Below, one piece after another: positions 1,631 through 22,080 of a stretch of 24,514 nucleotides of DNA. The stretch lies in contig JBKBOT010000021.1 in the NCBI GenBank assembly GCA_046293555.1, positions 1-24,514 on the forward strand, read 5' to 3'. The translations under genes and the position numbers were made by a program. The notes under the pieces were generated by a model. It ran no database searches, was not told the origin of the DNA, and was given only the letters and a program-made list of their open reading frames with translations. How positions within the stretch are numbered: position 1 is the first letter of the stretch; each line of letters opens with the position of its first letter. The stretch comes from Pyrobaculum sp. GTDB lineage: Archaea > Thermoproteota > Thermoprotei > Thermoproteales > Thermoproteaceae.

Positions 1631-1918
1631 TCACCTCACTTGTGTGAATATAAATAACACCAAAACGATGATCGCCAGCCCCCCCAATATGACGTATACC
1701 GCGCTTACGTTTGCCCTCATTTGGTCTAACATGGGCGCCAGCTGAGTTGCATTGGGCCATTGTATAGCCACCAGCCTGTCGGACAGGTCGTACAACATCG
1801 TGAATATTATCGTTGTGACAAAACCCATGGCCATCAACACCGCCAGAAAGATTATTATCTTAATTGGCCCAACGCCGCCTTCATCCCTCTCTACACCTCC
1901 ACCAAACACTATACCCAT
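1631..1918 (-). CDS. Small two-TM hairpin membrane protein (possible minor capsid/pilin-like)
   Basis: Two hydrophobic helices joined by a loop with N-A-T and N-V-S sequons; overlaps the stop of the upstream gene. Confidence 0.65.
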   Translation of the reverse strand: MGIVFGGGVERDEGGVGPIKIIIFLAVLMAMGFVTTIIFTMLYDLSDRLVAIQWPNATQLAPMLDQMRANVSAVYVILGGLAIIVLVLFIFTQVR

Positions 1919-2163
1919 TGTGCCCTCAACGCATACATTATAACCGACCCGACCAGCAAGATTTTCAACACCATGGCGTTGGTCAATATCGAAAATATGG
2001 CATCTACAACGTCGGATAGATACCCAGCGTTTGGGGTCTGCCTCCCAATTTGCGACATTGTGTGGGCCATGGGCAACATCTTTTGAAACATCTGTGCCAC
2101 ATAATCCGCTCCGATCAACACGGCCACGATCAACACGGCGAGCGCCGCGACCTTTACCTCCAT
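1909..2163 (-). CDS. Small two-TM hairpin membrane protein
   Basis: GGTGAT RBS before ATG 2163; two hydrophobic segments. Confidence 0.65.
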   Translation of the reverse strand: MEVKVAALAVLIVAVLIGADYVAQMFQKMLPMAHTMSQIGRQTPNAGYLSDVVDAIFSILTNAMVLKILLVGSVIMYALRAQWV

Positions 2164-2168
2164 GTTTA

Positions 2169-2582
2169 TCACCACTGCTGGTATGGGTTGAACAGCCCGC
2201 GGACGAACTTAGCCACCTCGTAGAACATATACGCCATGGCTATGGCTTGCAACACGACGGCGGCAGACATAGCCGGGGGGTAGAGCCACGGCGCGATGGC
2301 GTCCATGGCAGGTTTGAAGAAGTTGACGAGACTCGGCAGCGCAGACACCATGGAGATCACAAAGCTGTACATCATTGAGCCGAAGTGCGCAGCCTGCAGC
2401 CACCAAGTGGGGTCAGTCGTAACCGTGATGTTGGCAGTGGGGATGTTCAACGGCTCGACGCTCCCAAGCGGCCTCCCCAACGCACCAACAAAAGCCGTGT
2501 TCAAAATTGCAAACATGAGGGAGTAAAGGACGGCGAAATGCACCACCCTCCTCCCAATGGACATCAAAGGCTCGGGAATCAC
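2169..2582 (-). CDS. Multi-pass membrane protein
   Basis: GTG start 33 nt from motif promoter (2602-2615); about 3 hydrophobic segments; N-I-T sequon. Confidence 0.7.
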   Translation of the reverse strand: MIPEPLMSIGRRVVHFAVLYSLMFAILNTAFVGALGRPLGSVEPLNIPTANITVTTDPTWWLQAAHFGSMMYSFVISMVSALPSLVNFFKPAMDAIAPWLYPPAMSAAVVLQAIAMAYMFYEVAKFVRGLFNPYQQW

Positions 2583-2601
2583 ATACGTCCCACAATATGT
2601 T

Positions 2602-2615
2602 TATATATACGTTAC
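2602..2615 (-). promoter_or_regulatory. Conserved promoter motif GTAACGTATATATA
   Basis: Start codon at 2582 (33 nt away). Confidence 0.75.
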
Positions 2616-2660
2616 TGCCTCTAGGAACTACAGCTACGCATTGCAACCATCGTTTTAACA

Positions 2661-2747
2661 AATTTCTTGAATCAAGAAATTCTGGACAGCGACGGCCGCA
2701 TATCGCAGCACATCGACGTGAGATTTTGTTGAAAATTTTCAAGAAAA
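2661..2747. repeat. Two intergenic palindromes (AATTTCTTGA-A-TCAAGAAATT at 2661-2681; TTGAAAATTTTCAA at 2729-2742)
   Basis: Perfect inverted repeats read directly; the second has a near copy at 15471-15484. Confidence 0.6.
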
Positions 2748-2784
2748 AAGTTGTGGTTGCGCCCCCCAGCCTACGCCATAGTCA

Positions 2785-3402
2785 TCACTGTCTCCCCACC
2801 ATGTAGAGTAGAAACGCTGCTAGAAACATGACTGTCATGACGACGTTTGCAACAGGGTTCTGGCCCAGGGCTTGTTGCATCAAGAAGAGCGTTATGCCCC
2901 CAACCACCATCCCTATAGCCAGCTCGGCCCTGCCGCTGTGTAGACTATATATCACAACGCCGAGGACTATAATTGGCGTCAAGATCTTGGAGATCGAGTC
3001 TAACGCCGTCCACGGCCCCCCGACCACGGGGTTCCCCGGCGTGGGCTGCGGGGCGGTCCACTGCACGTATGTACAAGACAGGCTGAAGTGTGTCGTCGGC
3101 GGCGCTTGGACTATAGTGGCCATTGTTGTGGAGAAGGTGTGTGTTCTATACAACGTTGTGGTGTTTACAATGTATTTAGTCTGGGCGTAGGTATACGGCG
3201 TCCCCCCCATAGTCGTGGTGTTGGTGATGGCGATCACAGTGGTGTCGTAGTTAAAGATCGTCTCTGTGGAGGTGATTATGTAGGTGGTCCACGTCGTCAT
3301 GTTTACCCTAGAGACGTAGGTAACTTCAAAACACGTGGCCTGGCCGAGGGCTATGACCGCGACGAGGAGAAGCGCTACTGCCGCGTTCTGTGGGCCAGCC
3401 AT
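2785..3402 (-). CDS. Thr-rich surface glycoprotein with signal peptide and three C-terminal TM helices
   Basis: N-terminal hydrophobic signal; Thr-rich beta-like region with N-M-T and N-T-T sequons flanked by a Cys pair; hydrophobic C-terminus. Confidence 0.75.
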   Translation of the reverse strand: MAGPQNAAVALLLVAVIALGQATCFEVTYVSRVNMTTWTTYIITSTETIFNYDTTVIAITNTTTMGGTPYTYAQTKYIVNTTTLYRTHTFSTTMATIVQAPPTTHFSLSCTYVQWTAPQPTPGNPVVGGPWTALDSISKILTPIIVLGVVIYSLHSGRAELAIGMVVGGITLFLMQQALGQNPVANVVMTVMFLAAFLLYMVGRQ

Positions 3403-3604
3403 CCCAACACGCTTAGGAGGACTCCAACCGAAAACACAAAGATGCCATATTGTGAAAAGTATCTGTAGTCAACGTGGTATGCAAATGGGGCGTTTAACGC
3501 AGATGCGACTTGGTTATGTACCTCAACCAGCTTTGCCTCAAAGAAATACATGAGTATCAACGCTATGGCGAACATGGCTATCAACAGGAGCGCAAATACG
3601 ATGC

Positions 3605-3608
<4 letters not shown>
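3375..3608 (-). CDS. Small two-TM membrane protein
   Basis: ATGA-coupled to the upstream gene; two hydrophobic helices. Confidence 0.65.
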
Positions 3609-4203
<595 letters not shown>

Positions 4204-4207
<4 letters not shown>

Positions 4208-4551
4208 ACCCTCAGCCCAACCCTCCGCCTCCGCCGCCGTGTAGCCTCAGCCACGACTGGAACTTCAAGTGACGCGAGAAACCTGTGGACAAGCCCCCTC
4301 ACCGCCTCCACATCGCTGCCATGTTTAATCGCCAGGGGGATCAAGTAGCGGGCGCGTTTCTTTATCAGCTCGAGGAAGTTCCTATACCCGACGTCAGACA
4401 TGCGGATCGGCCTACATGAGTGGTCATACGTAACGCCAGACCGAAGCTCCTCCCGCATCTTCGACAAAATCGCCGCCGCAGACCTAGACGTGATGTAACT
4501 ATACGGAAGCTTGTAACAAGAGTTGGGCCCCAAATAGATATTTCTACGCAT
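4204..4551 (-). CDS. Basic protein with C-terminal RRRRRR tail (candidate nucleoprotein)
   Basis: ATG 4551 is 34 nt from motif promoter (4572-4585); basic composition. Confidence 0.75.
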
Positions 4552-4571
4552 GTACAAAAAAACAACAAAGA

Positions 4572-4585
4572 TATAAATACGTTAA
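4572..4585 (-). promoter_or_regulatory. Conserved promoter motif TTAACGTATTTATA
   Basis: ATG at 4551 (34 nt away). Confidence 0.65.
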
Positions 4586-4595
4586 CTCCAGACGT

Positions 4596-4886
4596 TTAAC
4601 TGACCCTGGATATGACACAAACCAAATCTCTGACCCAATAGACAAACGACCACTGTACCTCTATATGTGTTCTGTTGACCCCTGAAACATATTGACATGA
4701 CCTACTTCCATTAGATATGCAGACGGAAGTCGTATTGTTTAACTTTGTAACCACGTTGACCCCAGCCACATCGGTCGAGTGTGGTAAGTAACATGAAACC
4801 ACCATGGGAGTTAAAAATATAATTGTAAGACCAAGTGTACATATAAGCAACAAGTCTAATATGGGATCTACCTCATCTCGAGCCAT
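4596..4886 (-). CDS. Small membrane-anchored glycoprotein
   Basis: N-terminal TM; N-N-T, N-G-S and N-R-T sequons; several Cys; TTTAAA box upstream. Confidence 0.65.
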   Translation of the reverse strand: MARDEVDPILDLLLICTLGLTIIFLTPMVVSCYLPHSTDVAGVNVVTKLNNTTSVCISNGSRSCQYVSGVNRTHIEVQWSFVYWVRDLVCVISRVS

Positions 4887-5032
4887 GTGTAAAAGAAATT
4901 AATAAAAATTTAAAAAACCACCCCATCACACGTGAGCCAAAACACAACTCTAAAACAAACAGATATATCACAGACCTGACGGTTTTTATTGGCTATAACT
5001 CGGTCGTTTGTCTCGTGGACACGGCGTGTATG

Positions 5033-5335
5033 TTAAACTCCGAATATGATCCTAACCACCTCGAATAACATGAATCCTATAGAAAATACGAGCATCGCGA
5101 CGCCCATCTTCCAAACGGTTTCGTTAATCGTACAGAGCTTGTCGTATTTATATATCGTCGTGGTGCCAATTACATCGTTGATAGATGTGGCGTTGACGAC
5201 CACCAACTGACATTCCGCAGAGAGGAGCGCGGTGGCTATGGACGGAAGAAAGAGGAGAAATGCGGTCCACCTATGTCCGTAATAATACGCAACAAGACCA
5301 ACAACAAAAAAAGACAGGGGGATTAACCAAATCAC
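5033..5335 (-). CDS. Small membrane protein (3 TM) with glycosylated Cys-bounded loop
   Basis: Overlaps the stop of 5332..5625; N-A-T and N-E-T sequons. Confidence 0.7.
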   Translation of the reverse strand: MIWLIPLSFFVVGLVAYYYGHRWTAFLLFLPSIATALLSAECQLVVVNATSINDVIGTTTIYKYDKLCTINETVWKMGVAMLVFSIGFMLFEVVRIIFGV

Positions 5336-5625
5336 CTAGCTCTGCCGCCGAGGCTTGTAAACGTGGTTATTACCAGGAACACAATTCCAAGCGCCACCAG
5401 TACCATAGGCATAACTTGCATCAAGCTTAGCGAGTTAGTTGTAGTCCGTACAAACTGTTCTACTTGTGTCTTATTGGCGCCTGCTTGGATAGCTATATCT
5501 GCCATCATCGGCACTATCATGTATAACATCAAGCCGACCACTACAATTAGCGAAATTATTGTCAGCCATCTAATCGCTTTTTCTTGGTCTATGTCAATGA
5601 AGCCTCTTACTTTGCCCCTATCCAT
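5332..5625 (-). CDS. Candidate major capsid protein of spindle-shaped-virus type (hydrophobic helical hairpin)
   Basis: Start reassigned to ATG 5625 (33 nt from motif). Basic leader MDRGKVRG; helix 1 ...VGLMLYMIVP; loop with N-K-T; helix 2 SLMQVMPMVLVALGIV. The pattern resembles fusellovirus VP1 by eye. Confidence 0.55.
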   Translation of the reverse strand: MDRGKVRGFIDIDQEKAIRWLTIISLIVVVGLMLYMIVPMMADIAIQAGANKTQVEQFVRTTTNSLSLMQVMPMVLVALGIVFLVITTFTSLGGRAR

Positions 5626-5644
5626 ATGTCTCGGTACTTGGGGG

Positions 5645-5658
5645 TTTATATACGTCAC
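5645..5658 (-). promoter_or_regulatory. Conserved promoter motif GTGACGTATATAAA
   Basis: ATG at 5625 (33 nt away); 5641-5658 is identical over 18 bp to 245-262. Confidence 0.75.
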
Positions 5659-5688
5659 TCCCCGTTTGTACGTCGTATAAATTGTTTC

Positions 5689-6036
5689 TCAAACTTTCTT
5701 CTTGCATAACAACGTGCGCAGATTCTTAATATTGGTTTGTTGTACCACCACAACGGGCGCCCTGTATACAATCTTGTCCACCCTGTCAGATTTCCGCAAG
5801 ACCTCATACTCAATGCCGAATTTCTCCATGGCGTATTTCAACAGCTCTATGAACAACATGTTTTTAGATCCGCCGACCCTCCTGCCACATATCTTCTCGA
5901 GCATTTTTGCAGGCTTGATGGAGGCGTTTCGGCTGTAGAAGTCGTTGGCCAGAGCTATGAGCATATATGCGACCTCCACAGTGGCCGACTCCCACATGTC
6001 CTGCCTTACGTACAGCCTACCCACCTTTATGTACAT
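5689..6036 (-). CDS. Hypothetical basic protein, possibly winged-helix DNA-binding
   Basis: Last gene of the coupled 9868-to-5689 operon; helix-helix-beta-hairpin pattern; the function call is weak. Confidence 0.55.
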   Translation of the reverse strand: MYIKVGRLYVRQDMWESATVEVAYMLIALANDFYSRNASIKPAKMLEKICGRRVGGSKNMLFIELLKYAMEKFGIEYEVLRKSDRVDKIVYRAPVVVVQQTNIKNLRTLLCKKKV

Positions 6037-6412
6037 ACCCCCTCGACCACGCGACGGTGTACATCACATCATCTAGCCACTCCCAGACGACGTCCTCCTC
6101 CTTCCCGCTCCCCGGCCTCACCAAAGCTCTAACCAGAGGCGGCAGTTTACGTCTATATATCCACAGGTCCACACATCTAAACCTCTCCAAAACGCCGAGC
6201 TTGGGCTCCGCCTCAGCCCAGGCCACGAGGAAGTTCCAGAACTTCTTCTTGGCGTGGATGTATATATCCATGGCCTGTCTGGGCACAACCGGAATTGCAT
6301 ATGAGCTGTAGGCAGGTATGTAAATCACGCCGAACCCCCTACCCACCTTGAAGTACTGCCCCCCTCTACAGAGCGCAGCTAGTATTAACTCTATGACGGC
6401 GCCCCTCATCAT
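6017..6412 (-). CDS. Hypothetical protein
   Basis: Start reassigned to ATG 6412, giving an ATGA overlap with the stop of 6409..7128. Confidence 0.6.
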   Translation of the reverse strand: MMRGAVIELILAALCRGGQYFKVGRGFGVIYIPAYSSYAIPVVPRQAMDIYIHAKKKFWNFLVAWAEAEPKLGVLERFRCVDLWIYRRKLPPLVRALVRPGSGKEEDVVWEWLDDVMYTVAWSRGYVHKGG

Positions 6413-7128
6413 CCAAACATAATGCCGAACGACGGCAAAGACATAAATATCAACAGCAATACGACCAACACTATAATTACCATCGCTATGACTCTCGTAA
6501 TTTGCTCCTTCGACCTCCACGCCCTCCCGGCCTCCTTCAGCAGCTCCATGAAGTACTGCGACGTGGAGTACGCCCTGGCGGCTGAAATCATTACGTCTAA
6601 GTTTTGAGACATCATCGCGGCGATATATGTCTTTATCGCAGATGTGAGCCACTCCCGTTTTATATTCGCGGCTATTTCCACCTCGCCGATGTTGGCGAGA
6701 GTGATCTTCTCGCCTGTCTCCTTCTCAAGTATATGTAGAAACCGTTGTAAACACTCCCTTTCCTCAAGCCCCAACTCGCCACATGTGAACGAAATCCACG
6801 GCGGGATCGCGGTCTTGAGGTCAACTCCGAACTCTATATCTTGGATAAACGCAACTGTGTACACAGGCACGATACGTATCTTCCCGAGCGTTGCGACGAT
6901 GCCCCTCTGCAATGCAGAGGGGACGATCACATGTCTAACGCCATATCTGTATATACTATACGCGCCTGTGCGGTACGTCAACGGCGCCAAGTAGACCTCC
7001 CCCCTCTCCGTGATGACCAAAGCGTATTCGCCATGCGGCCCGCGGAATTTATACACCACAAAGAGAATCAATCCAAACGCAGCTATGGAGGTTATCCAAT
7101 CGATCATACCATCGCTGCGGCCTGACAC
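6409..7128 (-). CDS. Membrane protein with N- and C-terminal TM helices
   Basis: Hydrophobic termini and a soluble middle; part of the overlapping operon. Confidence 0.75.
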   Translation of the reverse strand: MSGRSDGMIDWITSIAAFGLILFVVYKFRGPHGEYALVITERGEVYLAPLTYRTGAYSIYRYGVRHVIVPSALQRGIVATLGKIRIVPVYTVAFIQDIEFGVDLKTAIPPWISFTCGELGLEERECLQRFLHILEKETGEKITLANIGEVEIAANIKREWLTSAIKTYIAAMMSQNLDVMISAARAYSTSQYFMELLKEAGRAWRSKEQITRVIAMVIIVLVVLLLIFMSLPSFGIMFG

Positions 7129-7364
7129 CCAGATATAAGTTGGACGCAGAAGTCCTGCCCCCCACTTGCATACAGCTTATCGCTATCCCTACAGATCGGA
7201 TGGCTGTCATCCTCGACGCACTCCTTCAACACCCGCTCCCTACATATGGCGAAGAACTCCTCCACCGTGTCCACCTTCTCGCCAAGCACCCCGCTGAGAC
7301 ATGTGACAAAAAGGGCGTCTGCCCAACTAGAATACGCCCTCGACTGCCACCTATAGAGACTCAT
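7104..7364 (-). CDS. Small Cys-rich (6 Cys) hypothetical protein
   Basis: Overlaps both neighbours in the operon. Confidence 0.6.
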   Translation of the reverse strand: MSLYRWQSRAYSSWADALFVTCLSGVLGEKVDTVEEFFAICRERVLKECVEDDSHPICRDSDKLYASGGQDFCVQLISGCQAAAMV

Positions 7365-8325
7365 CGCCCCTACACAACGCCTCCTTTAAATATTTCAACA
7401 AGTCCACATAGCTGGGCTTGTCCGGCAACACGTCTGGATCCAAGCCGTACTCCATGGCCCTAAAGACGGCATCACTGTGGCGGTATATGGGGTACGTCTT
7501 CGCATATAGGTATTTATACAACTCTTTGGCCAGCCTCTTGTCACAAACGCATTCATGTAGCTCGTTGAGGTCTGCGGGTATCTTGCCGCAAAGCTGTCTC
7601 CACTTCCATTTCCACTTCCTCCTCACTAGGTAGGGCTCTCCCTCCCCCACTTTACCCAAGCTGCTCACCACCTCTCTACGCTTCTTCATCAACGCAGCCT
7701 CCACGTCCAACGGAAGGGCCAACTCAGGCGTGATGGGAAACTCGCCGACCAGCCTCACCTTGAAGACGTTCCACGCATATGACCCCAATTTGCTCTTCAG
7801 ATACTCCTGGTCCACCTTCAACGTGGACATCAGCTTGTAGACCCTCACAACATCGCCCTCCCGCTCCACGAGGTGTGTGTTCAAAACGTTCCAAAGCCTC
7901 TTGGATATATAATGTCTGTTGAAGGTGGTGAAGATCATCCCCCTCTCCGCAATAGCCCCCCTGGCCAGCTTGATCTGCTCGATGAGTTTAGGCCAGGCCT
8001 TCGGCTCCAGCTGGTAGGTGATATTGGCGTCGTCCATAAACAAGAACTCATACAGCTTCCCCCTCTTGGCCACCTTGGCGAAGTGTTGTACAGCCTCGCT
8101 GATAGACGACGGCATGTAGAAATAATGCCTGTAGACATACCTCCTCGCCTCATCCCAATCCGTCACGCGCCCGGATTTGTACACATGCCAAGCCAAGACG
8201 TTGAAGCCGAGGGCCGTCTTGCCGACGCCAGGTCCGCCGTAGAGGGTCAAAATACCATATCTATCAAACCGCTTTAAAAGCTCGTCGAACTGGCTGTCGA
8301 TCTCCTCCAAATTGTAGACGGTCAT
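7351..8325 (-). CDS. P-loop ATPase, fusellovirus B251/pI-Zot-like (candidate morphogenesis/packaging ATPase)
   Basis: Walker A GGPGVGKT, Walker B FLFMDDA, and downstream LARG...GMIFTT...I-KRL. ATPase call is firm; the family call is by eye. Confidence 0.7.
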   Translation of the reverse strand: MTVYNLEEIDSQFDELLKRFDRYGILTLYGGPGVGKTALGFNVLAWHVYKSGRVTDWDEARRYVYRHYFYMPSSISEAVQHFAKVAKRGKLYEFLFMDDANITYQLEPKAWPKLIEQIKLARGAIAERGMIFTTFNRHYISKRLWNVLNTHLVEREGDVVRVYKLMSTLKVDQEYLKSKLGSYAWNVFKVRLVGEFPITPELALPLDVEAALMKKRREVVSSLGKVGEGEPYLVRRKWKWKWRQLCGKIPADLNELHECVCDKRLAKELYKYLYAKTYPIYRHSDAVFRAMEYGLDPDVLPDKPSYVDLLKYLKEALCRGDESL

Positions 8326-8717
8326 ACCCCGATCTCCTTGTAGATCCTGCCCTTCGCCGCAGCCTTCACAATGGCGCCGTATGCCACAACCGCCTTAAAC
8401 ACAGCGTCTATCTCAGGGTCCATATGGGTTTGTATCTCGAAGATCTCCCCAGCCTTCATCCCCACGAACCTAGACACGTCGAGCCCAACCACGTTGAAGG
8501 CCTCCAGAAATGGGAGCAACATGTATTTATCGACAGTTATATTTAAGTCGGCCAGGAGGGAGGCCAACATCTGCAGCTGCTGCGACCTGGCGATACGTAA
8601 CATCCGCGGAAGCTTCATGTCGTAGAGAACGCTCTTGAACAACGCCCCGGCCTCCTCAAACAGCTTGAGGCGGAGGTCCACTGGAGGCGTTGCAGATGGC
8701 AGCCTCTCAGCCGTCAT
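8322..8717 (-). CDS. Hypothetical helical protein
   Basis: ATG 8717 overlaps the stop of the AAA gene (ATGA); also coupled to the downstream ATPase. Confidence 0.7.
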   Translation of the reverse strand: MTAERLPSATPPVDLRLKLFEEAGALFKSVLYDMKLPRMLRIARSQQLQMLASLLADLNITVDKYMLLPFLEAFNVVGLDVSRFVGMKAGEIFEIQTHMDPEIDAVFKAVVAYGAIVKAAAKGRIYKEIGV

Positions 8718-9868
8718 GGACATCTCCTCCAAAACGCGATCTTTATGTCCTCAGTGTTGGCGCAAGGTCTAAGCATTTTCACCAACTTCACAAGCTGCTG
8801 GTCCCTATCGTACCTGATCTTCACTACAGGCAATTTCTCCGAGCCGTGGTGTGGGATGATCAAAAGCCCCCTCGCCAGCGGCTTGGCGTGTTTCACATAG
8901 CTCTGTCCAACCCTGTCGTCCACAACCCCCACCGCGCCGCTGTCCTCAAGGGCGTTGATCACAAACTTCGGATCTCTATCGCCGTAGATGTACCAAACCT
9001 GTCTAGACCCGCCGAAATAGCCCCACGCGACAAGCAACGCGTGGATTGGAGAGACAGCCGCGGTATATACGCCAACCTCCTCGCTCACGGAGACGCCCAC
9101 AGGCTGTGCGGTATATGGAGGCAAAACCTCGTAGTCCACGTCTGTGTACACACCAGCGCCCTTCTTCAGCTCGGCCATGGTCTTTGCGCCGGCCTTAAAC
9201 TCAAGCCCAGTAAGCTCGGCATATATCTTCAACATCTTCTGAGTGGGCAGAGGTATGCGCAACGCCTTAAACCTCCCGCTGGCGACAGCCGCCTGGTCTA
9301 CAAGCTCCGTGGGGACGTTCGTCGTGAGGACCACAACCCCCCTGTGGTTATCCTCAATATGTTCATGCGCCTTGGCCAACATGGCTGACACTATGGAGTT
9401 GTTCTTAAAGCTAAAGCCCCTTCTGGCCACAAGAACCTCCCCCTCGTCGAAAACCAAAACGCCGTTTGTAGACCTAACCCAGGAGAAGTACTTAGCCACC
9501 CTCTTCTCCGTATCGCCAAGCCATTTTATCAAGACAAGGTCAGGCGTGATTACTTTCACCTCCCTCCCCCACTTCTTTGCGAAATACTTCGGCGCATAGG
9601 ACTTGCCAGTCCGCGGGGGGCCAGTTAGGAGGAAAAGGCTGCCCACCTCCCAGTTGGAAAACGCCTTGTCCAACTCCGTGAAGACCTCCCTATATTGTAC
9701 ATATACATCGCCTGTGGATAACTTCTCGGCAATAAACTCATCGCTCTCAACCCGCCTTTCTACTTTAGGCACGTATGAATACTTCGTATATCTCTCCTCG
9801 ATGCATTTCGGCGGGTCTGTATAAATTATCTCAGAATCTCTCTTTATCATGCGGATGCAGGGATACAC
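8714..9868 (-). CDS. AAA+ ATPase, classical (Cdc48/Vps4/PAN-like) clade
   Basis: Walker A LLTGPPRTGKS, pore loop IKWLGDTE, Walker B VLVFDEGE, SRH TTNVP--VDQA---SGRF. Confidence 0.85.
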   Translation of the reverse strand: MYPCIRMIKRDSEIIYTDPPKCIEERYTKYSYVPKVERRVESDEFIAEKLSTGDVYVQYREVFTELDKAFSNWEVGSLFLLTGPPRTGKSYAPKYFAKKWGREVKVITPDLVLIKWLGDTEKRVAKYFSWVRSTNGVLVFDEGEVLVARRGFSFKNNSIVSAMLAKAHEHIEDNHRGVVVLTTNVPTELVDQAAVASGRFKALRIPLPTQKMLKIYAELTGLEFKAGAKTMAELKKGAGVYTDVDYEVLPPYTAQPVGVSVSEEVGVYTAAVSPIHALLVAWGYFGGSRQVWYIYGDRDPKFVINALEDSGAVGVVDDRVGQSYVKHAKPLARGLLIIPHHGSEKLPVVKIRYDRDQQLVKLVKMLRPCANTEDIKIAFWRRCP

Positions 9869-10314: not shown

Positions 10315-10823
10315 TCAGAATACCCGTCGTCTCTTTTTTCCGCCGGATTTGTTATGAGGTTTGTCTCCAGATACCACTTCCTCATGTGATTGTTCTGTAG
10401 ACAATCCGTGTACTTCCACCTCTCTACCTAAGAGTGGATATATGATATATCTACCATACAGATCTGTGTTGTAGTCTCTAATGTATATAGTCACAGAGGA
10501 GTCGTCCGGTTTGTTTAAGCACAACCAAGAATATATATTAAGTTTATACCTCCCGACCTCAGCTATGTATGATAGCAAGTAATTGTATCTACCCTTGTTA
10601 ACTGATAGTAGATATCTAGATACTTACTCAATCCATGCCTATCTGCAAACTCTTTGATGATTTTATCCAACGCCTTTACGACCTCGCGTAATGTATATGC
10701 GGTGACCATCATCTTATCTATCTCACCAAACTCCAAACGGTCCATGGCGCCTTTAAAGACCTCTAGATGTGACCTCAACGCCTTTACGACCTCGTTGACC
10801 AGTTGTTTCAACAGTGACGATAT
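10315..10823 (-). pseudogene. Broken member of the Arg-tail paralog family
   Basis: ORF 10563..10877 matches the family N-half (LVNEVVKALRSHLE...FADRHGL). ORF 10315..10578 matches the C-half (LSY...NI...KPDDSSV...YIIYP...KKRRRVF). One extra base at about 10581 joins them. The expected start position reads ATA. Confidence 0.7.
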
Positions 10824-10827
10824 ACTA

Positions 10828-11382
10828 CTATACTCTCCGTTTACGTCGAGTGTTTTTACGCTGCTCGACCTCGGCACCGCTGTGTTTGGGATATATAGTG
10901 CTGTTTATGTAATTGTGTATATATTGTTTAGCCTTACCTATGGGCACTTTCTCCTCAAACCTCACATTGCTGTATGGCCAGATGGTGTATCTATAGAGTT
11001 TCCCCTCTCCGTGGTCTTCCATAAACACGTCTATAGACGCATCGTCCATCCTCTCCATCGGCATAACGATAAATATGTTAAGCACAACGTAGCGCCCAGA
11101 ATGGACAGAATAGATGTTGTTAGACAATGCGAAGATCTTATCTTTTGTGTTCGGCATTGGCATAATGATGTTAGTCGCACTAGAGAAGCCGTATCTACGC
11201 AAGATCTCTTCGATAAGTTTCGTCACGCTAGCCGAAACATCCGCCGGCGGCCTCTCCTTAACCCACTTCATGGCCCCATCAGGACCTGCCTCCTCTGCCA
11301 CCCTCCTGACCTGCTCTAGGTAGGGCTTGGCCAGCCTCAAGACCCCCCACGCCAACTCGCCCGGGAGCTTACGTAGGGACAT
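10828..11382 (-). CDS. Arg-tail paralog family protein (tail RKNTRRKRRV)
   Basis: GAGGT RBS before ATG 11382; close paralog of 11394..11936 (shared KIFALS, NIFIVMPM--MDDASIDVF). Confidence 0.85.
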   Translation of the reverse strand: MSLRKLPGELAWGVLRLAKPYLEQVRRVAEEAGPDGAMKWVKERPPADVSASVTKLIEEILRRYGFSSATNIIMPMPNTKDKIFALSNNIYSVHSGRYVVLNIFIVMPMERMDDASIDVFMEDHGEGKLYRYTIWPYSNVRFEEKVPIGKAKQYIHNYINSTIYPKHSGAEVEQRKNTRRKRRV

Positions 11383-11393
11383 ATACCTCACTA

Positions 11394-11936
11394 TTACGTC
11401 TTCCGTCTACGTCGAGTGTTTTTACGTGAGCTATCGCCACCCCTCTTACGGAGAGACATTGCGTTCCTTAGGTAGTCGGCTAGGTGTTGACTCACCTCGC
11501 CAATGGGCACAGACTGTTCGAAACTCACGCCGCGGTACGGCCCGACTGTATGTCTATAGCTCATCCCACTCCCACGGTCGTGTACAAACACATCTATAGA
11601 CGCATCATCCATTTTTTTCATCGGCATGACGATAAATATGTTAAACAAGGCGCCGTCTTCCGAATAGACGTTGTAAGACAGAGCGAAGATCTTCTCGTCC
11701 ACATTCGCAATGGGTATCACCGTATCGTAGGCTCTAGGTAGGCCGTATTTATCGGCCAGGTTGTTGACAAACTGTATAAGCCCCCTCAAGAGCCCCATCG
11801 GCGGCCTCCCCATGACCCACAACATGGCGCCAGACGGCCCCACCACATTCACCACATTCTTGACTTGGTCGAAATATGGCCTAACCAACTCGGCGACGCC
11901 CCTCGCCACCTCGCCCGAGAGCCTACGTAGAGACAT
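11394..11936 (-). CDS. Arg-tail paralog family protein (tail RKNTRRRRKT)
   Basis: ATG 11936 is 33 nt from the motif promoter. Confidence 0.85.
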   Translation of the reverse strand: MSLRRLSGEVARGVAELVRPYFDQVKNVVNVVGPSGAMLWVMGRPPMGLLRGLIQFVNNLADKYGLPRAYDTVIPIANVDEKIFALSYNVYSEDGALFNIFIVMPMKKMDDASIDVFVHDRGSGMSYRHTVGPYRGVSFEQSVPIGEVSQHLADYLRNAMSLRKRGGDSSRKNTRRRRKT

Positions 11937-11955
11937 ATGTCCCAATACCTAAAGG

Positions 11956-11969
11956 TATATATACGTCAC
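11956..11969 (-). promoter_or_regulatory. Conserved promoter motif GTGACGTATATATA
   Basis: ATG at 11936; the TGA within the motif is also the stop codon of the upstream gene. Confidence 0.75.
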
Positions 11970-12532
11970 CTCCGCCTGCGGCGACGACGCCTATTGTTGT
12001 CTTCACCCCTATCGACATCCTCCTCGTCAAGTCCCATTCTGTGTAACACATTCATATACTCTCTGTATAGATTTTCGATATCCTCCCAACTATATGTCTC
12101 CTCATCTTTCCATCCATGTAGCGGAAATATGGCATAGCTGTAGACCAACTCATCGGTCTCATCGGCTGGGACATATACGTCCACTATAGCGCTTTTCGGC
12201 TTTTGTAACGATAATGCAACGTTTACTGTAAATAGAACTCTCTCGCCTGTTTCAAGCGTGTACGACATTATGTAGATCTTATGATTGGTGTCTACAATCG
12301 GATCGATTATGCCGATAGCGTCGGGGATCCCGTACGCACTAGCAAAAGCCTTGGCGAATCCGTCTACGGCAGATGCGATTTTCTCCATCGTCATATTGAC
12401 AACATTACGTCTAGCTTGTGATTGAGGCCCCGCCCTTGACATCATCTTTACAAACTCCTTGAGGTGTGGCTTGATGACTTTGGCCACCTCCTCCGCTATA
12501 GCCTTAGCTAACTCGCGTGGATGTTCCATCAT
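11966..12532 (-). CDS. Arg-tail paralog family protein (tail R8)
   Basis: HPRELAKAIAEEVA...YGIP...YSYAIFP family motifs. Confidence 0.85.
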   Translation of the reverse strand: MMEHPRELAKAIAEEVAKVIKPHLKEFVKMMSRAGPQSQARRNVVNMTMEKIASAVDGFAKAFASAYGIPDAIGIIDPIVDTNHKIYIMSYTLETGERVLFTVNVALSLQKPKSAIVDVYVPADETDELVYSYAIFPLHGWKDEETYSWEDIENLYREYMNVLHRMGLDEEDVDRGEDNNRRRRRRRR

Positions 12533-13071
12533 GTCCTTTTGCCACGCCTCCTCCTTTTTCTGTCCTCCCCCTTCCCCTCGCCCCCGCCGCCTCCAAACCC
12601 CCCCTCAGCAAACCTGCGCACTTGTTCTGGCGACAAGACTTGTTCGTGCTCCTCGCCTGTAAACGGCGCAATCGCGTATCTATACACAGAGCCGTCTAAA
12701 CCCCTCACGCCTACAGACACGAAAGAGAGCTCCGGCGCATATATGTTCAACGTGATGATGGCAACCACTCTCTTCATGCCGCCTATAACCCAGCTGTATC
12801 CAACCATGAAGCTCCCCTTTTCTTGATCCACAAAGATGGGCTCTATCACCGAGTACACATCCACGCCATATATCTGCCTAATTGCCGTCGTGACTTTATC
12901 TAACTCCGTTATGATCTTACGTATTGCGTAGAGGGCCGCAAGCGGCTCGTCCAAGCCGACATACTTGGCGTTACGGACACGCCTACGGAACTTATCCAAA
13001 TGGGGATAGGCAACCTCGAGGACGTGATCAGCCACCTCCTTTGCTATATCCATTGGATTTTTGCCTTGCAT
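12529..13071 (-). CDS. Arg-tail paralog family protein (Gly linker + RKRRRRGKRT)
   Basis: NPMDIAKEVA...YRYAIAPFTGE; ATG is 33 nt from the motif. Confidence 0.85.
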   Translation of the reverse strand: MQGKNPMDIAKEVADHVLEVAYPHLDKFRRRVRNAKYVGLDEPLAALYAIRKIITELDKVTTAIRQIYGVDVYSVIEPIFVDQEKGSFMVGYSWVIGGMKRVVAIITLNIYAPELSFVSVGVRGLDGSVYRYAIAPFTGEEHEQVLSPEQVRRFAEGGFGGGGGEGKGEDRKRRRRGKRT

Positions 13072-13090
13072 ATACCCCTACGTCTAGAGA

Positions 13091-13104
13091 TATAAATACG
13101 TCAC
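13091..13104 (-). promoter_or_regulatory. Conserved promoter motif GTGACGTATTTATA
   Basis: ATG at 13071 (33 nt away). Confidence 0.75.
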
Positions 13105-13128
13105 CATTTCGCTTATTCCCAGAGAGCC

Positions 13129-13590
13129 TTAACGCGCCGCTTGTCTGCGCCCCCTCTTCCGCCGTGGCTCCTCGTTGTAGTAAATTCTCGCCTCACCTGC
13201 CCACTTGAGTATGTCGTCTTCTGTAATTACCCCGCCGTCCAGAAACGGAGACTTCTCGTACTTACGCACCACTCTGCCATCCCTCACCACATATGCAGCT
13301 ACAGCCATCGAACCCTTTAGGGACATCACTATAACCATTGTGTGATGATGTCTATTTCTCACAATCAGTTTGTACGTCAAGATAAGTAGCCCCCTCTCTT
13401 GCTCTTCAAACACCCTAGCCACTATGTAGGTCCCCTGCTTTTCCGTAACCGTGTAAATATAGTCGTCAATAAGCTTGTTCACCAACAACGTGATTTTATG
13501 TGACATGGAGACATAGGCACTTCCAACCCTTTTTACAACTCTCCTAACCTCTCCAGCCAGCCTGTCTACAAACCCCCTTAGACCGTCCAC
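13129..13590 (-). CDS. Divergent Arg-tail family protein (tail RRKRGRRQAAR)
   Basis: LAGEV N-terminal helix, beta-rich middle, SPF motif and basic tail. Confidence 0.75.
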   Translation of the reverse strand: MDGLRGFVDRLAGEVRRVVKRVGSAYVSMSHKITLLVNKLIDDYIYTVTEKQGTYIVARVFEEQERGLLILTYKLIVRNRHHHTMVIVMSLKGSMAVAAYVVRDGRVVRKYEKSPFLDGGVITEDDILKWAGEARIYYNEEPRRKRGRRQAAR

Positions 13591-14090
13591 CGCCGCCTCC
13601 TACGCCTAGGCGCAGCTCCCGAAGGCGGTTCAAACACGGGCGGCCTAAGCCCGCCTAGAGGGCCGCCATGTAGCCTCTCGCCGGTGAGCGGGTAGACGGC
13701 GTATGGATATTTACCAAACCCCCCCTTCCAGTCGTATACGTTCACCTTCACCAATGCCTTGTCTATATCATGCGGAGGCACAATCACCTTTATGATGGCC
13801 AGCCAATCGCGTGTGTATATGCTATATGAGTATATGTACTGATTGGGATCAAAGGCGAATCCGAAGTCTAAAATAAGGCGTTCAAACCTAGGCAAGTCGT
13901 AGGTTTTGGCAAAGGCCTCCACAAGACCGTCAAGCGCGTTGCCAACCTCTCCCTTGAACTCACTAAACGCCGCGACCAAGTCCAGGCTGGATTTAGCTCT
14001 AGTCGCCCTCTCCTTAAGCCTCTCTATATACGGCTTTACAACCTCGGCCGCCCCCTCGGCCAAGGCCTTGGCAAGATCCCCAGGATGCAT
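13578..14090 (-). CDS. Arg-tail paralog family protein (tail PRRRRRRWTV)
   Basis: MHPGDLAKALAE...YDLP...YAVYPLTGE; ATG is 33 nt from the motif. Confidence 0.85.
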   Translation of the reverse strand: MHPGDLAKALAEGAAEVVKPYIERLKERATRAKSSLDLVAAFSEFKGEVGNALDGLVEAFAKTYDLPRFERLILDFGFAFDPNQYIYSYSIYTRDWLAIIKVIVPPHDIDKALVKVNVYDWKGGFGKYPYAVYPLTGERLHGGPLGGLRPPVFEPPSGAAPRRRRRRWTV

Positions 14091-14109
14091 ATATCCCAAC
14101 GCCTATGGA

Positions 14110-14123
14110 TATAAATACGTCAT
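14110..14123 (-). promoter_or_regulatory. Conserved promoter motif ATGACGTATTTATA
   Basis: ATG at 14090 (33 nt away). Confidence 0.75.
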
Positions 14124-14137
14124 TTTTTACGATTACA

Positions 14138-14686
14138 TTACTGTCGTCTTTTACGCCTTTTACGCATTAAGTCATACGCCTCTTTTGACCCTCCAGCTCC
14201 AAGTACTTTCATATCTTTTGCAGCTCTCTTGACGGCACGTGTGTATTCCTCTAATGACAATTCGTCTTGCTGCCTCTCGTCAGTGAACGGATAAATTGAA
14301 TACAAATATACTTTCCATCTGCCAAAAGCCGTAACGACTATAGACGAACTGTTTGGATCTCGTAACGGTATGGTGATAGTTATGTTTGCTAACTGCCATC
14401 CCCCCTCTGTGAACAAGTTGTATGTTAATATGTACGTTTCTGTCTCAACGTTAATAACAGGCACTGCGTAGATAAACACTTTCGGCAAGCCGTAAGTACG
14501 GACGACGTCCATCACGACGTTGTTTGACGCCTCTATGATCCCTTTAGTGAGGCCATCTAACGCGGCCAACCCCTCTCTAGAGGTGCCGCCCACCTCAGTT
14601 GTTATTGTCTTATATCTCTCTAAATACGGCCTTACCGCTTTGGCGATATTTTCGGCCAACGTTTTCGCCAACTCTTTGGGATACAT
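14138..14686 (-). CDS. Arg-tail paralog family protein (tail RKRRKRRQ)
   Basis: MYPKELAKTLAE...YGLP...YSIYPFTDE. Confidence 0.85.
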   Translation of the reverse strand: MYPKELAKTLAENIAKAVRPYLERYKTITTEVGGTSREGLAALDGLTKGIIEASNNVVMDVVRTYGLPKVFIYAVPVINVETETYILTYNLFTEGGWQLANITITIPLRDPNSSSIVVTAFGRWKVYLYSIYPFTDERQQDELSLEEYTRAVKRAAKDMKVLGAGGSKEAYDLMRKRRKRRQ

Positions 14687-14705
14687 ATGCCACTACACCT
14701 AAAGA

Positions 14706-14719
14706 TATAAATACGTCAT
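14706..14719 (-). promoter_or_regulatory. Conserved promoter motif ATGACGTATTTATA
   Basis: ATG at 14686 (33 nt away). Confidence 0.75.
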
Positions 14720-14738
14720 TGTGGCATATAGTATTGCC

Positions 14739-14819
14739 TTACACATAGGCCAGACCGCATATCTCTAGGCACTTGTGTCTACTAACAACAAGAGCTTTTG
14801 CTAACTCTTTAGGACGTAT
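14739..14819 (-). pseudogene. Relic 5' fragment of an Arg-tail family gene (IRPKELAKAL...)
   Basis: 14790-14819 resembles 14657-14686; the start position reads ATA and no motif promoter remains. Confidence 0.55.
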
Positions 14820-14902
14820 AAACCACTACCTTAACACATACATGTTCCACACACACCCCCAGACTAGAGGTCCCCCACATGCGGCGGCGCCCACCTCTGT
14901 CC

Positions 14903-15388
14903 TCACACCGCCACCCTCTTACGCTGACGTGTTTGATTTACAGCTGTCTGTGTTGTTAACTCTACCTTCTCGCTCTCCTCGCCTGTGGCCAGGTTTAGCC
15001 TGTATACATAACGCTTATCGCGATGTCTTATGTAGACGGTCATATACGACATCTCCGGCCGATGTGCGTATAAGTCAAGACGTAACTCAAACCACCCATC
15101 GCCCCCCTCCAGTGGATACCCCTCTATTGGATACGCCACAAACCTCCCGCTGAGCTTCAACTGCCCCTCGTCGAGACTTATGTGCTCTACATAATACCCC
15201 CGCGTGTAAATCCTCGTGAAGGCGGCCAAAACCTCCACAATCTCCCTCCACCAGTCGTCAACCTCCTCCCTCATGGTCTTGAGGCTGGGCTCCTCCCTAA
15301 TGGACTTCAAAATCCCCGCCAAAGCCCGTCTCGCGTATGAATCCCTCAAGACAAACGTCGCCGTCCGCCTCGCCCACTCCACGTCCAT
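14903..15388 (-). CDS. Hypothetical protein with basic tail (RQRKRVAV), probably a distant array member
   Basis: Helical N-half and beta-rich C-half with YVYRLNLATGE; ATG is 33 nt from the motif. Confidence 0.8.
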   Translation of the reverse strand: MDVEWARRTATFVLRDSYARRALAGILKSIREEPSLKTMREEVDDWWREIVEVLAAFTRIYTRGYYVEHISLDEGQLKLSGRFVAYPIEGYPLEGGDGWFELRLDLYAHRPEMSYMTVYIRHRDKRYVYRLNLATGEESEKVELTTQTAVNQTRQRKRVAV

Positions 15389-19483: not shown

Positions 19484-19620
19484 GCCGGACTGACGGGGAT
19501 AGCCCCCACTACCACTACCCATTCCACCACTCATTACCCCCATATATGTCATTAGACAAGTCGAATGTTTTTTCGCCTTTTCATTGTTACCTACGGCGAG
19601 ATACGCCGTAGTTTTTATTT

Positions 19621-19762
19621 TCTAAACATTCGCGGCATATGTCCAAAGATTTCCAAACATTCACATTTTATTTCCAAAGATTTCCAAAAATTCACACATT
19701 TCCAAACATTTGTGGTTTTGGTCCAAAGATTTCCAAAGATTTGTGCCGTGGCTCCAAAGATT
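19621..19762. repeat. Array of nine 10-bp direct repeats TCCAAA(G/C)ATT (iteron-like)
   Basis: Copies start at 19621, 19642, 19652, 19673, 19683, 19701, 19722, 19732 and 19753, in an AT-rich gap between convergent genes. Confidence 0.85.
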
Positions 19763-19814
19763 CTCTAGAGAATAAGAGAACCGGCCCCCGATAGGATGCG
19801 TGTAGAAAGTCAGC

Positions 19815-21228: not shown

Positions 21229-22080
21229 ATGGACAGATGTCCAGCCTGCGGCGGCGGCAGTTTTGTCTACAGCTACGACAGGGGCGAGGTCGTGTGTGAC
21301 CAATGTGGCACAGTGGTACAACAGCTTGTGGACACCGGCCCGGAGTGGAGGAGGGCGGAGCGCGCCAGGGTCGGACCCCCCATGTCGCCGACTGTTACAC
21401 CATTGTTACTCACCTCGATCGACAGGAGGAAAGACACAAAAGGTAGGGAGTTGGGGTTGAGGGTTGGCGCAATGCGGCTAAGGGACTACCAGATGCGGTT
21501 TGGGGTAAGCACCGCGCTTGAGCGTAAATATCTAGACGCGGTCAAGGAGGCCGCCAGAATTGCAAGCGTTATGGGCATACCGAAGCCATGTGTAGACACT
21601 GCGCTCTCCATTATACGCAAGGCCGTTGGACACATCCGAGGCAGGCCGCTTGACGCCTTGGCGGCGGCTGCGCTCTACGCCGCATGTAGGCTTACAAACA
21701 CGCCGAGACAAATCGAGGAGTTTGCGAAATACACAAAGGCGTCAAGGAGACATATCACAAAGAGCTACATGTCGATAGTCGAGACGCTTGGGGTAAAGCC
21801 CCCGCTGCCCCACCCAGCTGTGTACATCCCCAAGATCGCCTCGGCGCTGAGGCTGAGAGATGGCATAGTCAAAATGGCGATAGATATAGCCAAGAGGGCG
21901 AGGGAGGCCAGGTTGACCAGAGGCAAGACCCCCGCCTCCATAGCCGCCGCAGCTGTATACATCGCCATGATGAAACACGGCGTGAGGACAACCATAGAAG
22001 ACGTGGCCAAGGCCGCCAACGTCTCCCCCCCGGCGGTAAAACAGAGGTACGTGGAGATATCCACAAAGCTAAAGATATAG
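21229..22080 (+). CDS. tfb: Transcription initiation factor B (TFB) paralog
   Basis: Zn ribbon CPAC...CDQC, B-reader DTGPEWR, two cyclin repeats (GR----LAAAALYAACR; GKTP-SIAAAAVYIA). Confidence 0.95.
   Translation: MDRCPACGGGSFVYSYDRGEVVCDQCGTVVQQLVDTGPEWRRAERARVGPPMSPTVTPLLLTSIDRRKDTKGRELGLRVGAMRLRDYQMRFGVSTALERKYLDAVKEAARIASVMGIPKPCVDTALSIIRKAVGHIRGRPLDALAAAALYAACRLTNTPRQIEEFAKYTKASRRHITKSYMSIVETLGVKPPLPHPAVYIPKIASALRLRDGIVKMAIDIAKRAREARLTRGKTPASIAAAAVYIAMMKHGVRTTIEDVAKAANVSPPAVKQRYVEISTKLKI

Follow-up and report, generated by a model that had tools for sequence, protein, structure and literature searches.

The gene module of contig C21

The window analyzed here is the complete 24,514-base contig JBKBOT010000021.1 (hereinafter C21) of the Pyrobaculum sp. 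assembly GCA_046293555.1, a metagenome-assembled genome (MAG) of 1.75 Mb in 145 contigs. Between positions 15388 and 1631 its genes are on the minus strand, and from 15458 on most are on the plus strand; its GC content of 0.51 equals the MAG mean. The right end truncates an N6-methyltransferase gene, variants of which begin other contigs of the MAG, and comparison of the contig ends recovered no terminal direct or inverted repeats in the window; together with the lack of overlap with other contigs of the MAG (see below), these observations mark C21 as incomplete. No tRNA was detected in the window, Rfam yielded no match to it, and a search of sequencing runs found the stretch only in the probable source sample. 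A preliminary description, made from the letters of the DNA, had proposed that positions 1631–8325 hold a morphogenesis module resembling that of spindle-shaped viruses, with a VP1-like hydrophobic hairpin, further hairpins and membrane glycoproteins, a Thr-rich surface protein, and an ATPase like B251 of SSV1 (Sulfolobus spindle-shaped virus 1). The block itself is confirmed (Table 1), and its conserved part continues to 9868, taking in a second, AAA+ ATPase. As a label, morphogenesis proves too narrow: the block of membrane proteins stands, whereas ATPases of the B251 type are annotated as replication proteins.

The hairpin protein encoded at 5332–5625 begins with charged residues and ends in a short basic C-terminus; its hydrophobic segments span roughly residues 15–48 and 64–95 and enclose a loop with an N-K-T sequon (residue 51). 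Its start, correctly placed in the preliminary description, is the ATG at 5625, which lies ~20 nt downstream of a TATA-type motif, a spacing that implies a leaderless transcript. It is accompanied by three additional hairpins (1631–1918, 1909–2175, and 3375–3608) and five further predicted membrane proteins; glycosylation of the membrane and surface proteins of the module is predicted from their sequons. The hairpin at 1631–1918 shares a GVGP motif with the metagenomic protein cluster c10 (hhalign 51.7% over 66 columns; for the clusters, see the next section). The protein at 2785–3402 bears out the expectation of a Thr-rich surface protein: threonine accounts for 35 of its 205 residues and for 30 of the 107 in its ectodomain, against 5% in all proteins of the contig, and it has a hydrophobic N-terminus and C-terminal hydrophobic or membrane segments. 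It resembles the metagenomic cluster c18 in architecture and composition only, with no match to the cluster profile. The basic protein at 4204–4557 shows 41% identity in tblastn to the metagenome contig L099. Copies of the promoter motif precede both this gene (4572–4584) and that at 2169–2582 (2602–2614). An ORF (open reading frame) at 6017–6652 overlaps the gene at 6409–7128 and could not be confirmed as a gene.

Table 1. Features of the window with position, strand, and basis of assignment (aa, amino acids; HMM, hidden Markov model; BRE, B recognition element; TFB, transcription factor B; c numbers, metagenomic protein clusters).
Feature	Position	Strand	Basis
Hairpin membrane protein, 95 aa, 2 loop sequons, c10-like	1631..1918	-	c10 HMM best match, E 0.012
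Hairpin membrane protein, 88 aa, without assigned relative	1909..2175	-	No Pfam or PHROG match
Membrane protein, 137 aa, c6-like	2169..2582	-	c6 HMM E 1.2e-4, HMM positions 6-138/145
Thr-rich predicted surface glycoprotein, 205 aa	2785..3402	-	Composition, 3 sequons
Hairpin membrane protein, 77 aa, weakly c25/c42-like	3375..3608	-	c42 HMM E 0.0036; c25 HMM best match, E 0.032
Protospacer	3592..3626		Spacer of CRISPR contig C126; 34/35 aligned bases of 40-nt spacer; blastn 39/42
Soluble protein, 200 aa, N-terminal poly-Gln run, c12-like	3605..4207	-	c12 HMM E 2.2e-5, HMM positions 17-180/199
Basic protein, 117 aa, C-terminal poly-Arg tail, c29 family	4204..4557	-	c29 HMM E 1e-18
Protein with N-terminal membrane anchor, 96 aa, 4 N-x-S/T sequons	4596..4886	-	Hydrophobicity scan; no family match
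Protospacer	4926..4966		Spacer of CRISPR contig C117; 40/41 bases
Protein with three hydrophobic segments, 100 aa, sequon-bearing (2) middle part, c7-like	5033..5335	-	c7 HMM E 1.6e-4
Two-helix membrane hairpin, 97 aa	5332..5625	-	Hydrophobicity; c2 HMM best match
TATA/BRE-type promoter motif TGACGTATATAAA	5645..5657	-	~20 nt upstream of hairpin ATG; repeat family D2
Basic soluble protein, 115 aa	5689..6036	-	No matches found
Protein with hydrophobic N- and C-terminal segments, 239 aa, c16-like	6409..7128	-	c16 HMM E 9.5e-7; weak tblastn match to L099
P-loop ATPase, 324 aa, fusellovirus B251 (DnaA-like) profile family, c0	7351..8325	-	Pfam nSTAND3; phrog_5484
Soluble protein, 136 aa, c27-like	8322..8732	-	c27 HMM E 3.4e-6
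AAA+ (Cdc48-type) ATPase, 384 aa, c8	8714..9868	-	c8 HMM E 4.9e-82
Eight diverged tandem paralogues and ninth split copy (10315-10877; ORFs 10315-10578, 10563-10877)	10315..15388	-	Alignment A1
TFB (TFIIB repeats and zinc ribbon)	21229..22080	+	Pfam TFIIB 1.6e-30; Zn_Ribbon_TF 6.9e-12

Contig C21 is a mobile element with metagenomic relatives

A word-indexed search of 5.8 billion proteins with the hairpin and the ATPase at 7351–8325 as queries returned nothing beyond the window itself. Exhaustive phmmer comparison of the ATPase with 1.84 billion representatives recovered nine relatives (E-values 2e-37 to 1e-5), for which the organism names given by the sources were Pyrobaculum sp. MAGs only (for two of eight clusters). 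With an alignment of seven ATPase relatives (A3) we scanned metagenome contigs and obtained 97 relatives, from which 79 loci were kept; their ORFs were called crudely, 809 proteins were clustered, and HMMs were built for 64 clusters, the E-values of which refer to a target set of ~80 proteins. The HMMs of c0, c8, c29, c16, c27, c12, c6, c7, and c42 matched the window (e.g., c0 against 7351–8325, E 1.6e-27), and in a search with the filters off those of c2, c10, and c25 each ranked a different window hairpin first. In all, about ten genes between 2169 and 9868 are matched by cluster profiles of the family, from which it follows that the module, though reshuffled, is conserved and reaches to 9868, including the AAA+ ATPase at 8714–9868.

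The long loci share a gene order that leads from c0 through small membrane proteins of two to four segments (c14, c2, c7, c6, c10) to c1 (~700 aa) and c8, and thence through c34, c27, c16, c15, c12, c5, c21, c25, the Thr-rich c18, and c29 to c35, a sequon-rich protein of ~650 aa whose N-terminus is hydrophobic and whose C-terminal part contains membrane segments. Upstream of c0 the family loci carry either c4 (~910 aa, with a Walker A motif) or c11 (~550 aa). One metagenome contig, L099 (19,234 bp), has a terminal overlap of 121 bp and is accordingly a complete circle, closing at ~19.1 kb; among the 38 loci of at least 5 kb it is the sole one with such an overlap, and it holds the full module together with a gene of the D12-class methyltransferase family (c37) and lacks both an integrase and c4. 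Comparison with SSV1 (B251 taken from the genome NC_001338) showed that the c0 HMM matches B251 (6e-9) and the c64 HMM the integrase (3.1e-9), and that the family has ribbon-helix-helix (RHH) regulators in common with this virus. Only three of the 79 related loci have an integrase; within the window the c64 HMM touches just the N-terminus of a helix-turn-helix (HTH) protein (19815–20282), and a Pfam scan of 40 proteins of this incomplete contig found no integrase family. The family probably consists of circular elements of ~19–27 kb, the upper figure being that of the longest contig with a hairpin-family member, and its member in the window is targeted by CRISPR (short palindromic repeats, clustered and regularly interspaced). 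A scan of genome contigs with a single protein query (P0003) retrieved no relatives, and among the papers listed for Pyrobaculum, fuselloviruses, and spindle viruses in the library searched, none describes this element group.

The distribution of the module genes bears on whether C21 is part of the core chromosome, an outcome that the preliminary description had named as fatal to its proposal. Among 61 genomes searched with the ATPase, the positives were the MAG itself and one weak match (G011:C70), which we dismissed, having read it from its ORFs as replication factor C (our own label). The ATPase-family profile gave matches of P-loop length only, in four of 61 other genomes of the order, and that of the hairpin family gave two matches, both weak, among 61 other genomes and was unmatched in 17 genus-mates. 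Within the MAG, the 17 genes of 1631–9868 are without paralogues, save for weak matches of 4204–4557 and of the AAA domain. The MAG holds 23 CRISPR contigs (including C22, C71, C72, C92, C98, C102, C111, C114, C117, C125, and C126) with one repeat type and 297 spacers, and the comparison of spacers that the preliminary description had called for was positive: four of these spacers match C21, at 3592–3626, 4926–4966, 22743–22788, and 22966–23002, the first two inside 1631–8325. Spacers of the MAG also match its contigs C19, C25, C29, C30, C35, C50, C52, C57, C61, C66, C73, and C95; the bin is therefore a mixture of a host population and several mobile elements.

Since the module genes are absent from 60–61 related genomes and the MAG's own spacers target it, C21 is a mobile element and not core chromosome. 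It carries host-derived genes. The context genes on the contig code for PCNA, TFB, a TGT-superfamily protein, an N6-methyltransferase, and a dCTP deaminase (dcd); this is the set that had been anticipated, with TGT recovered at superfamily level. The dcd gene (22125–22658; 183 bits against a cut-off of 92.8) has two further copies in the MAG (C38:2814–3341 and C66:473–1000), and the three are 93–95% identical in amino acid sequence, compared with 77–87% identity to the other 17 genomes of the genus. A single dcd is present in 15 of these 17, and in the remaining two there is a further match that is partial or split. Around the C38 copy lie the chromosomal neighbors known from relatives, whereas those on C21 and C66 are paired with a methyltransferase, which suggests that the elements recently captured the host dcd gene. 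For PCNA, there are five matches in the MAG and two in most relatives. A plain chromosomal island of host membrane proteins without mobility would be in keeping with the GC content and with the host-type character of dcd, PCNA, and TFB; however, in view of the spacer matches and the absence from related genomes this possibility is practically refuted and appears to us vanishingly small, the more so with a relative that exists as a closed circle and with the chromosomal dcd context sitting on a different contig, C38.

Virus, pilus, or plasmid

Among the ~80 target proteins, the best match of the c2 HMM is the hairpin at 5332–5625 (E 0.0011, 10.7 bits). The two share a K-V-R-G motif and the invariant sequon Asn (alignment A4), and the hairpin gene adjoins a c7-like gene, as in six of the nine loci that hold both c2 and c7; the hairpin is a probable counterpart of c2 and a candidate major virion protein, be it of capsid or envelope. 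At E ≤1e-3 the c2 family comprises 77 clusters of the 5.8-billion-protein set, none of them meaningfully named, with a common layout that opens with a leader rich in Lys and Arg and a conserved R-G-(S/Q)-x-E-I, continues through helix 1, an N-x-T that is invariant, and helix 2, and closes with a short polar tail. This layout is also that of the short precursors of VP1 in the fuselloviruses SSV2 and SSV19. In hhalign comparisons with a profile of 14 VP1/VP3 sequences, c2 scored 29.9 (56% probability over 29 columns in the region of the leader and helix 1), while c2 against the 63 other clusters reached at most 25.9 and 60 column shuffles at most 17.4. The proposed likeness to VP1 is thus suggestive for the family, the VP1/VP3 match of c2 being the best of 64 comparisons; the window hairpin taken singly showed no match to Pfam VP1_VP3 (PF06281) or His1_capsid at E-values up to 10 and was likewise unmatched in PHROGs, where SSV1 VP1 and VP3 do match (phrog_11172/phrog_5402). 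The nearest named clusters in the ESM Atlas were VP1_VP3 (0.84) and His1_capsid (0.83) for the window hairpin and the same two (0.86 and 0.83) for a c2 member, all below 0.9 and to be taken as leads only; the Atlas search with the hairpin is in any case non-discriminating, as it also returned generic helical hairpins such as tape-measure proteins and seryl-tRNA-synthetase coiled coils. At the level of sequence comparison, homology of the hairpin to SSV1 VP1 is only suggestive.

Two-helix hairpins are also the architecture of VirB2 pilins (PMC9905601), and the preliminary description had named a conjugative element with VirB2-type pilins and flanking VirB4/VirD4 genes as the outcome that would overturn its proposal. 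According to that paper, the Ted system comprises TedC with a cleavable signal peptide, the seven-helix TedA, and the VirB4-like TedB, is a domesticated chromosomal system, and has in TedC a component detectable by BLASTP in all five genera of Thermoproteales. A conjugative or DNA-exchange pilus of the Ted/Ced kind, i.e., of the T4SS (type IV secretion system) kind with TedC/CedA1 as VirB2-like pilins, would share with C21 the host order and a small hydrophobic two-helix protein, and 5332–5625 would then be a pilin of the VirB2/TedC type. The hairpin does touch Pfam T4SS_CagC, with an E-value of 2.6e-4 for an over-long 108-aa ORF and of 0.0038 for the true 97-aa protein; at 17.8 bits against a cut-off of 27.9 and in one of the 16 members of A4 among the matches listed, we reject this as pilin evidence. 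In the same set Bac_export_2 (FlhB) appeared for 10 of the 16 (best 23.3 bits, against a cut-off of 24.4, among the matches listed), and all these matches, lying below the cut-off, we judge to be compositional, reflecting a basic leader and two helices, and not homologous. Against PDB sequences the hairpin profile returned five unrelated chains and no pilin, and a single-sequence search nothing relevant. The hairpin N-terminus reads as charged and not as a signal peptide, and the hairpin profile is unmatched in the 17 genus-mates, in contrast to the wide occurrence of TedC. No window protein matches a VirB4 (TedB), VirD4, or VirB6 (TedA) family in Pfam, and PF12846 found nothing on C21, within the limits of an incomplete window; the only ATPases there are the nSTAND3/B251-type and AAA proteins, and by the hydrophobicity scan the window proteins have at most four hydrophobic segments each, against the seven helices of TedA. 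Among large proteins of the L099 type, c11 and c35 from L099 itself and c1 (as its L054 member) are without Pfam match, and the clusters c1, c11, and c35 lack a Walker A motif. With the element targeted by CRISPR and a relative episomal, as opposed to a domesticated chromosomal system, a pilin reading of the hairpin is not supported by these comparisons, and we consider the pilus very improbable.

The two ATPases of the module both have archaeal viruses as their nearest annotated relatives. That at 7351–8325 matches Pfam nSTAND3 (E 1.2e-8) and phrog_5484 (E 2.8e-9, profile positions 33–219 of 239), the PHROG that SSV1 B251 matches at 5e-101 and a member of the element family at 8.3e-13; the shared PHROG justifies the designation 'B251-like' at the profile level, and in pairwise BLASTP with B251 the Walker A region alone aligns. 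The AAA+ ATPase at 8714–9868 matches Pfam AAA (3.6e-14) and phrog_9172 (1.3e-23) and is 34% identical over its full length to its counterpart in the related locus L048. Its best matches in virus records are AAA ATPases of Acidianus tailed spindle virus (ATSV), Sulfolobus monocaudavirus 1 (SMV1), and the Sulfolobales viruses YNP1/2, with 25–28% identity over about half the length.

With moderate confidence, we interpret the window as covering the greater part of a mobile-element genome from a Pyrobaculum-like archaeon of a hot spring, the element being most probably a virus of an undescribed family, with 1631–9868 as its particle-building and membrane-associated module. On this interpretation, the hairpin at 5332–5625 would be made abundantly from a strong leaderless promoter and enter the cell membrane by both helices with the sequon loop facing outward, and would, like fusellovirus VP1, be the main constituent of a virion shell that is hydrophobic and derived from the membrane. 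Minor components of the shell or envelope would be supplied by the other hairpins and the small membrane proteins, and the Thr-rich and sequon-rich proteins would form a glycosylated surface. The B251-type ATPase may act on DNA, in replication start or loading, and the AAA+ ATPase in assembly or remodeling. Particle production and the identity of the particle-building protein are thereby proposed in the same conditional sense as these roles.

The competing possibility is a non-viral plasmid or integrative element, in which the membrane proteins and ATPases would serve in a transfer apparatus other than a T4SS, in vesicle-borne spread, in surface modification, or in the exclusion of competitors. 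Several observations lean toward it or weigh against a virus. No window protein matches a capsid or virion family in Pfam or PHROGs. The link of the window hairpin to c2 is weak (10.7 bits; hhalign 10.8%), and the hairpin alone scores 0.4% in hhalign against VP1/VP3, with a Smith-Waterman z-score of ~2; for c2 itself, a reversed-profile control still reaches 22.3, and with VP1/VP3 as query c2 comes first of 64 clusters only narrowly (25.4, vs 25.2 for c16). Neither the ATPase and the hairpin nor alignments A2 and A3 retrieved relatives from IMG/VR; among phage and virus records, whole-window megablast found nothing, tblastn gave nothing for the ATPase and one chance match (E 4) for the hairpin, and the family ATPase and c1 are without match. 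Four clusters of the family (c1, c4, c11, and c35) are absent from the window, and C21 is unclosed, none of the other contigs of the MAG sharing an exact overlap of at least 21 nt with it. The ~910-aa c4 protein, 18 of whose 20 members show a Walker A motif and which has no match in Pfam or PHROGs, we take by eye to be a plasmid-typical primase-polymerase/helicase replication protein, a label of our own that no family match backs. The closed circle of 19.1 kb and the scarcity of integrases would also suit a plasmid, and CRISPR spacers target plasmids as well as viruses. However, the ATPases, one with the B251 profile and the other like those of spindle viruses, and a conserved hairpin that has a sequon and a basic leader and finds its best profile match in VP1/VP3, argue for a virus; a cryptic plasmid would be unusual in carrying about ten conserved small proteins of membrane or secreted type, and the family ATPase has no match in 72,556 plasmid records. 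On balance, a plasmid strikes us as less likely than a virus, though a real alternative. The lack of a counterpart in the phage and virus records, plasmid records, and IMG/VR collections searched is at the same time in line with the new lineage that the preliminary description had considered possible.

Transcription signals, basic tags, and other genes

The promoter motif upstream of the hairpin belongs to a set of copies of TGACGTATWTATA, of which the window holds 16 with up to two mismatches, against 0.79 expected and with none of 100 shuffles reaching 16. Most lie ~20–30 nt ahead of start codons, and further sites are at 11956–11968, 13091–13103, 14110–14122, 14706–14718, and 17156–17168. 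A copy at 227–262 is directed leftward, facing off the left contig end, so that a minus-strand gene is probably cut by the boundary. Of the exact copies in the MAG (20), nine are on C25 and five on C21, and any other contig has at most one. C25 is likewise CRISPR-targeted and has one paralogue in common with C21 (53% identity). The TFB of C21 is 46% identical to a copy on contig C5, and this factor together with a motif concentrated on C21 and C25 may constitute a transcription programme specific to the elements.

Beside the module, and as context to it rather than a member, lies the tandem array at 10315–15388, whose paralogues are 20–28% identical, each end in a poly-Arg tail, and mostly stand behind the promoter motif. 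Among 62 genomes of the order two contain them, the 61 genomes other than the MAG giving a single weak match; one further copy is on C25, and they have no Pfam match above threshold. C-terminal poly-Arg/Lys tags are found on 11 of 41 window proteins (in the regions 1259–1606, 4204–4557, 10315–15388, and 16001–16666), compared with nine of 735 chromosomal ORFs, and N-terminal ones on nine of 27 ORFs of C25, compared with three of 735. In the metagenomic family, the ATPase bears a C-terminal tag in 43 of 96 cases, and 17 of 28 c2 hairpins have a basic leader. Our guess is that the tags serve in DNA binding or co-packaging.

In the right half of the window, four overlapping direct repeats of ~49 nt (19613–19772; TCCAAAGATTTCCAAACATT-like units) precede the HTH gene at 19815–20282, and a similar stretch is present on C41; they are possibly an operator or origin. 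With the HTH protein as query, tblastn gave generic HTH matches only. The product of the gene at 16669–17184 (171 aa) is a polytopic membrane protein whose match to Peptidase_A24, the family of type IV prepilin peptidases, stays below threshold (E 5.5e-4, 20.8 bits vs 26.5); it is 36% identical to a copy on C5, a contig of chromosomal size. The TGT-superfamily protein (18551–19483; 310 aa) has the TgtA catalytic core only (52 bits vs a cut-off of 350) and copies of 73–76% identity on C26 and C1; it is possibly a DNA-modifying transglycosylase.

Wider significance and comparison with known systems

The isolated viruses known from Pyrobaculum and Thermoproteus are spherical (Globuloviridae) or filamentous. 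A more far-reaching proposal, which we put forward as tentative, is that the window, at least 79 metagenomic loci, and 77 hairpin clusters represent a new family-level lineage of Pyrobaculum viruses, with virions built of several membrane hairpins distantly related to fusellovirus VP1; the window's member would in addition have a transcription programme of its own (TFB and a private BRE/TATA motif common to C25) and a dozen poly-Arg-tagged proteins that are perhaps co-packaged with the DNA. If the elements are viral and their hairpins VP1-like, they would be a new lineage in the archaeal virosphere; the hairpin-capsid principle would, if this is true, extend to Thermoproteales, and the family would offer a concrete test of whether this architecture is both of greater age and of wider occurrence than Sulfolobales together with the halophile and marine lineages. 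Named candidates are supplied by the module for virion proteomics, and the private promoter motif, the TFB, and the poly-Arg tags are testable leads to virus-directed transcription and protein packaging in hyperthermophiles.

Aeropyrum globular virus 1, by its description (bioRxiv 10.1101/2021.04.21.440749), has a spherical virion with a 28.5-kDa major protein and a circular genome of ~18 kb that codes for an SSV-type integrase, a P-loop ATPase considered by the authors to be related to DnaA, and 13 ORFs that contain transmembrane motifs. This gene content, likened here by description and not by sequence, is comparable to that of the element family, and it follows that virion shape is not to be read from such a gene content; the spindle form put forward in the preliminary description can accordingly not be deduced from the genes.

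Globuloviridae, represented by Pyrobaculum spherical virus (PSV) and TTSV1 (Thermoproteus tenax spherical virus 1), are spherical viruses of the same host group (Pyrobaculum and Thermoproteus). PSV shares genes with the metagenomic relatives, namely c14 with ORF150 (1.2e-14), c17 with three regulator ORFs, and, weakly, c37 with ORF131 (1.7e-4), and the window HTH protein has a weak match to a PSV_ORF131-like domain. However, a sensitive tblastn comparison of 41 window proteins with PSV and TTSV1 gave nothing below E 5e-4, and that one match lies outside the structural genes (VP2, VP3). Moreover, their genomes are recorded as linear, while inverted terminal repeats are lacking in the window and in the 38 related loci of at least 5 kb, one of which is circular. 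The large tailed spindle viruses (ATSV, SMV1–4, and the Sulfolobales viruses YNP1/2) provide the best virus-record matches of the AAA+ ATPase, but it is the generic AAA+ domain alone that matches, their genomes measure 35–71 kb, and no other gene is held in common.

From Fuselloviridae (SSV1, SSV2, SSV19, and Acidianus spindle-shaped virus 1 (ASV1), all of them spindle-shaped and infecting Sulfolobales) the element differs in its host order and, in the window, in the lack of an integrase and of any VP1/VP3 match in Pfam or PHROGs. A tblastn search against the whole SSV1 genome gave a best E-value of 0.18, with no VP2, VP4, or other core gene. In place of the VP1/VP3 pair it has several distinct hairpin families, and the window adds an AAA+ ATPase, PCNA, TFB, dcd, a TGT-like protein, a methyltransferase, and the poly-Arg paralogue array. 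By the sequence tests available, the element is placed outside Fuselloviridae. Nevertheless, it shares with this family a B251-type ATPase, in the window and in the relatives, and a small two-helix hydrophobic protein with a sequon loop, basic leader, and short polar tail, as in VP1 of SSV2 and SSV19; the SSV-type integrase of three related loci, the RHH regulators, and a circular relative of ~19 kb (for fuselloviruses, circular dsDNA genomes of ~14–24 kb are characteristic) extend the resemblance.

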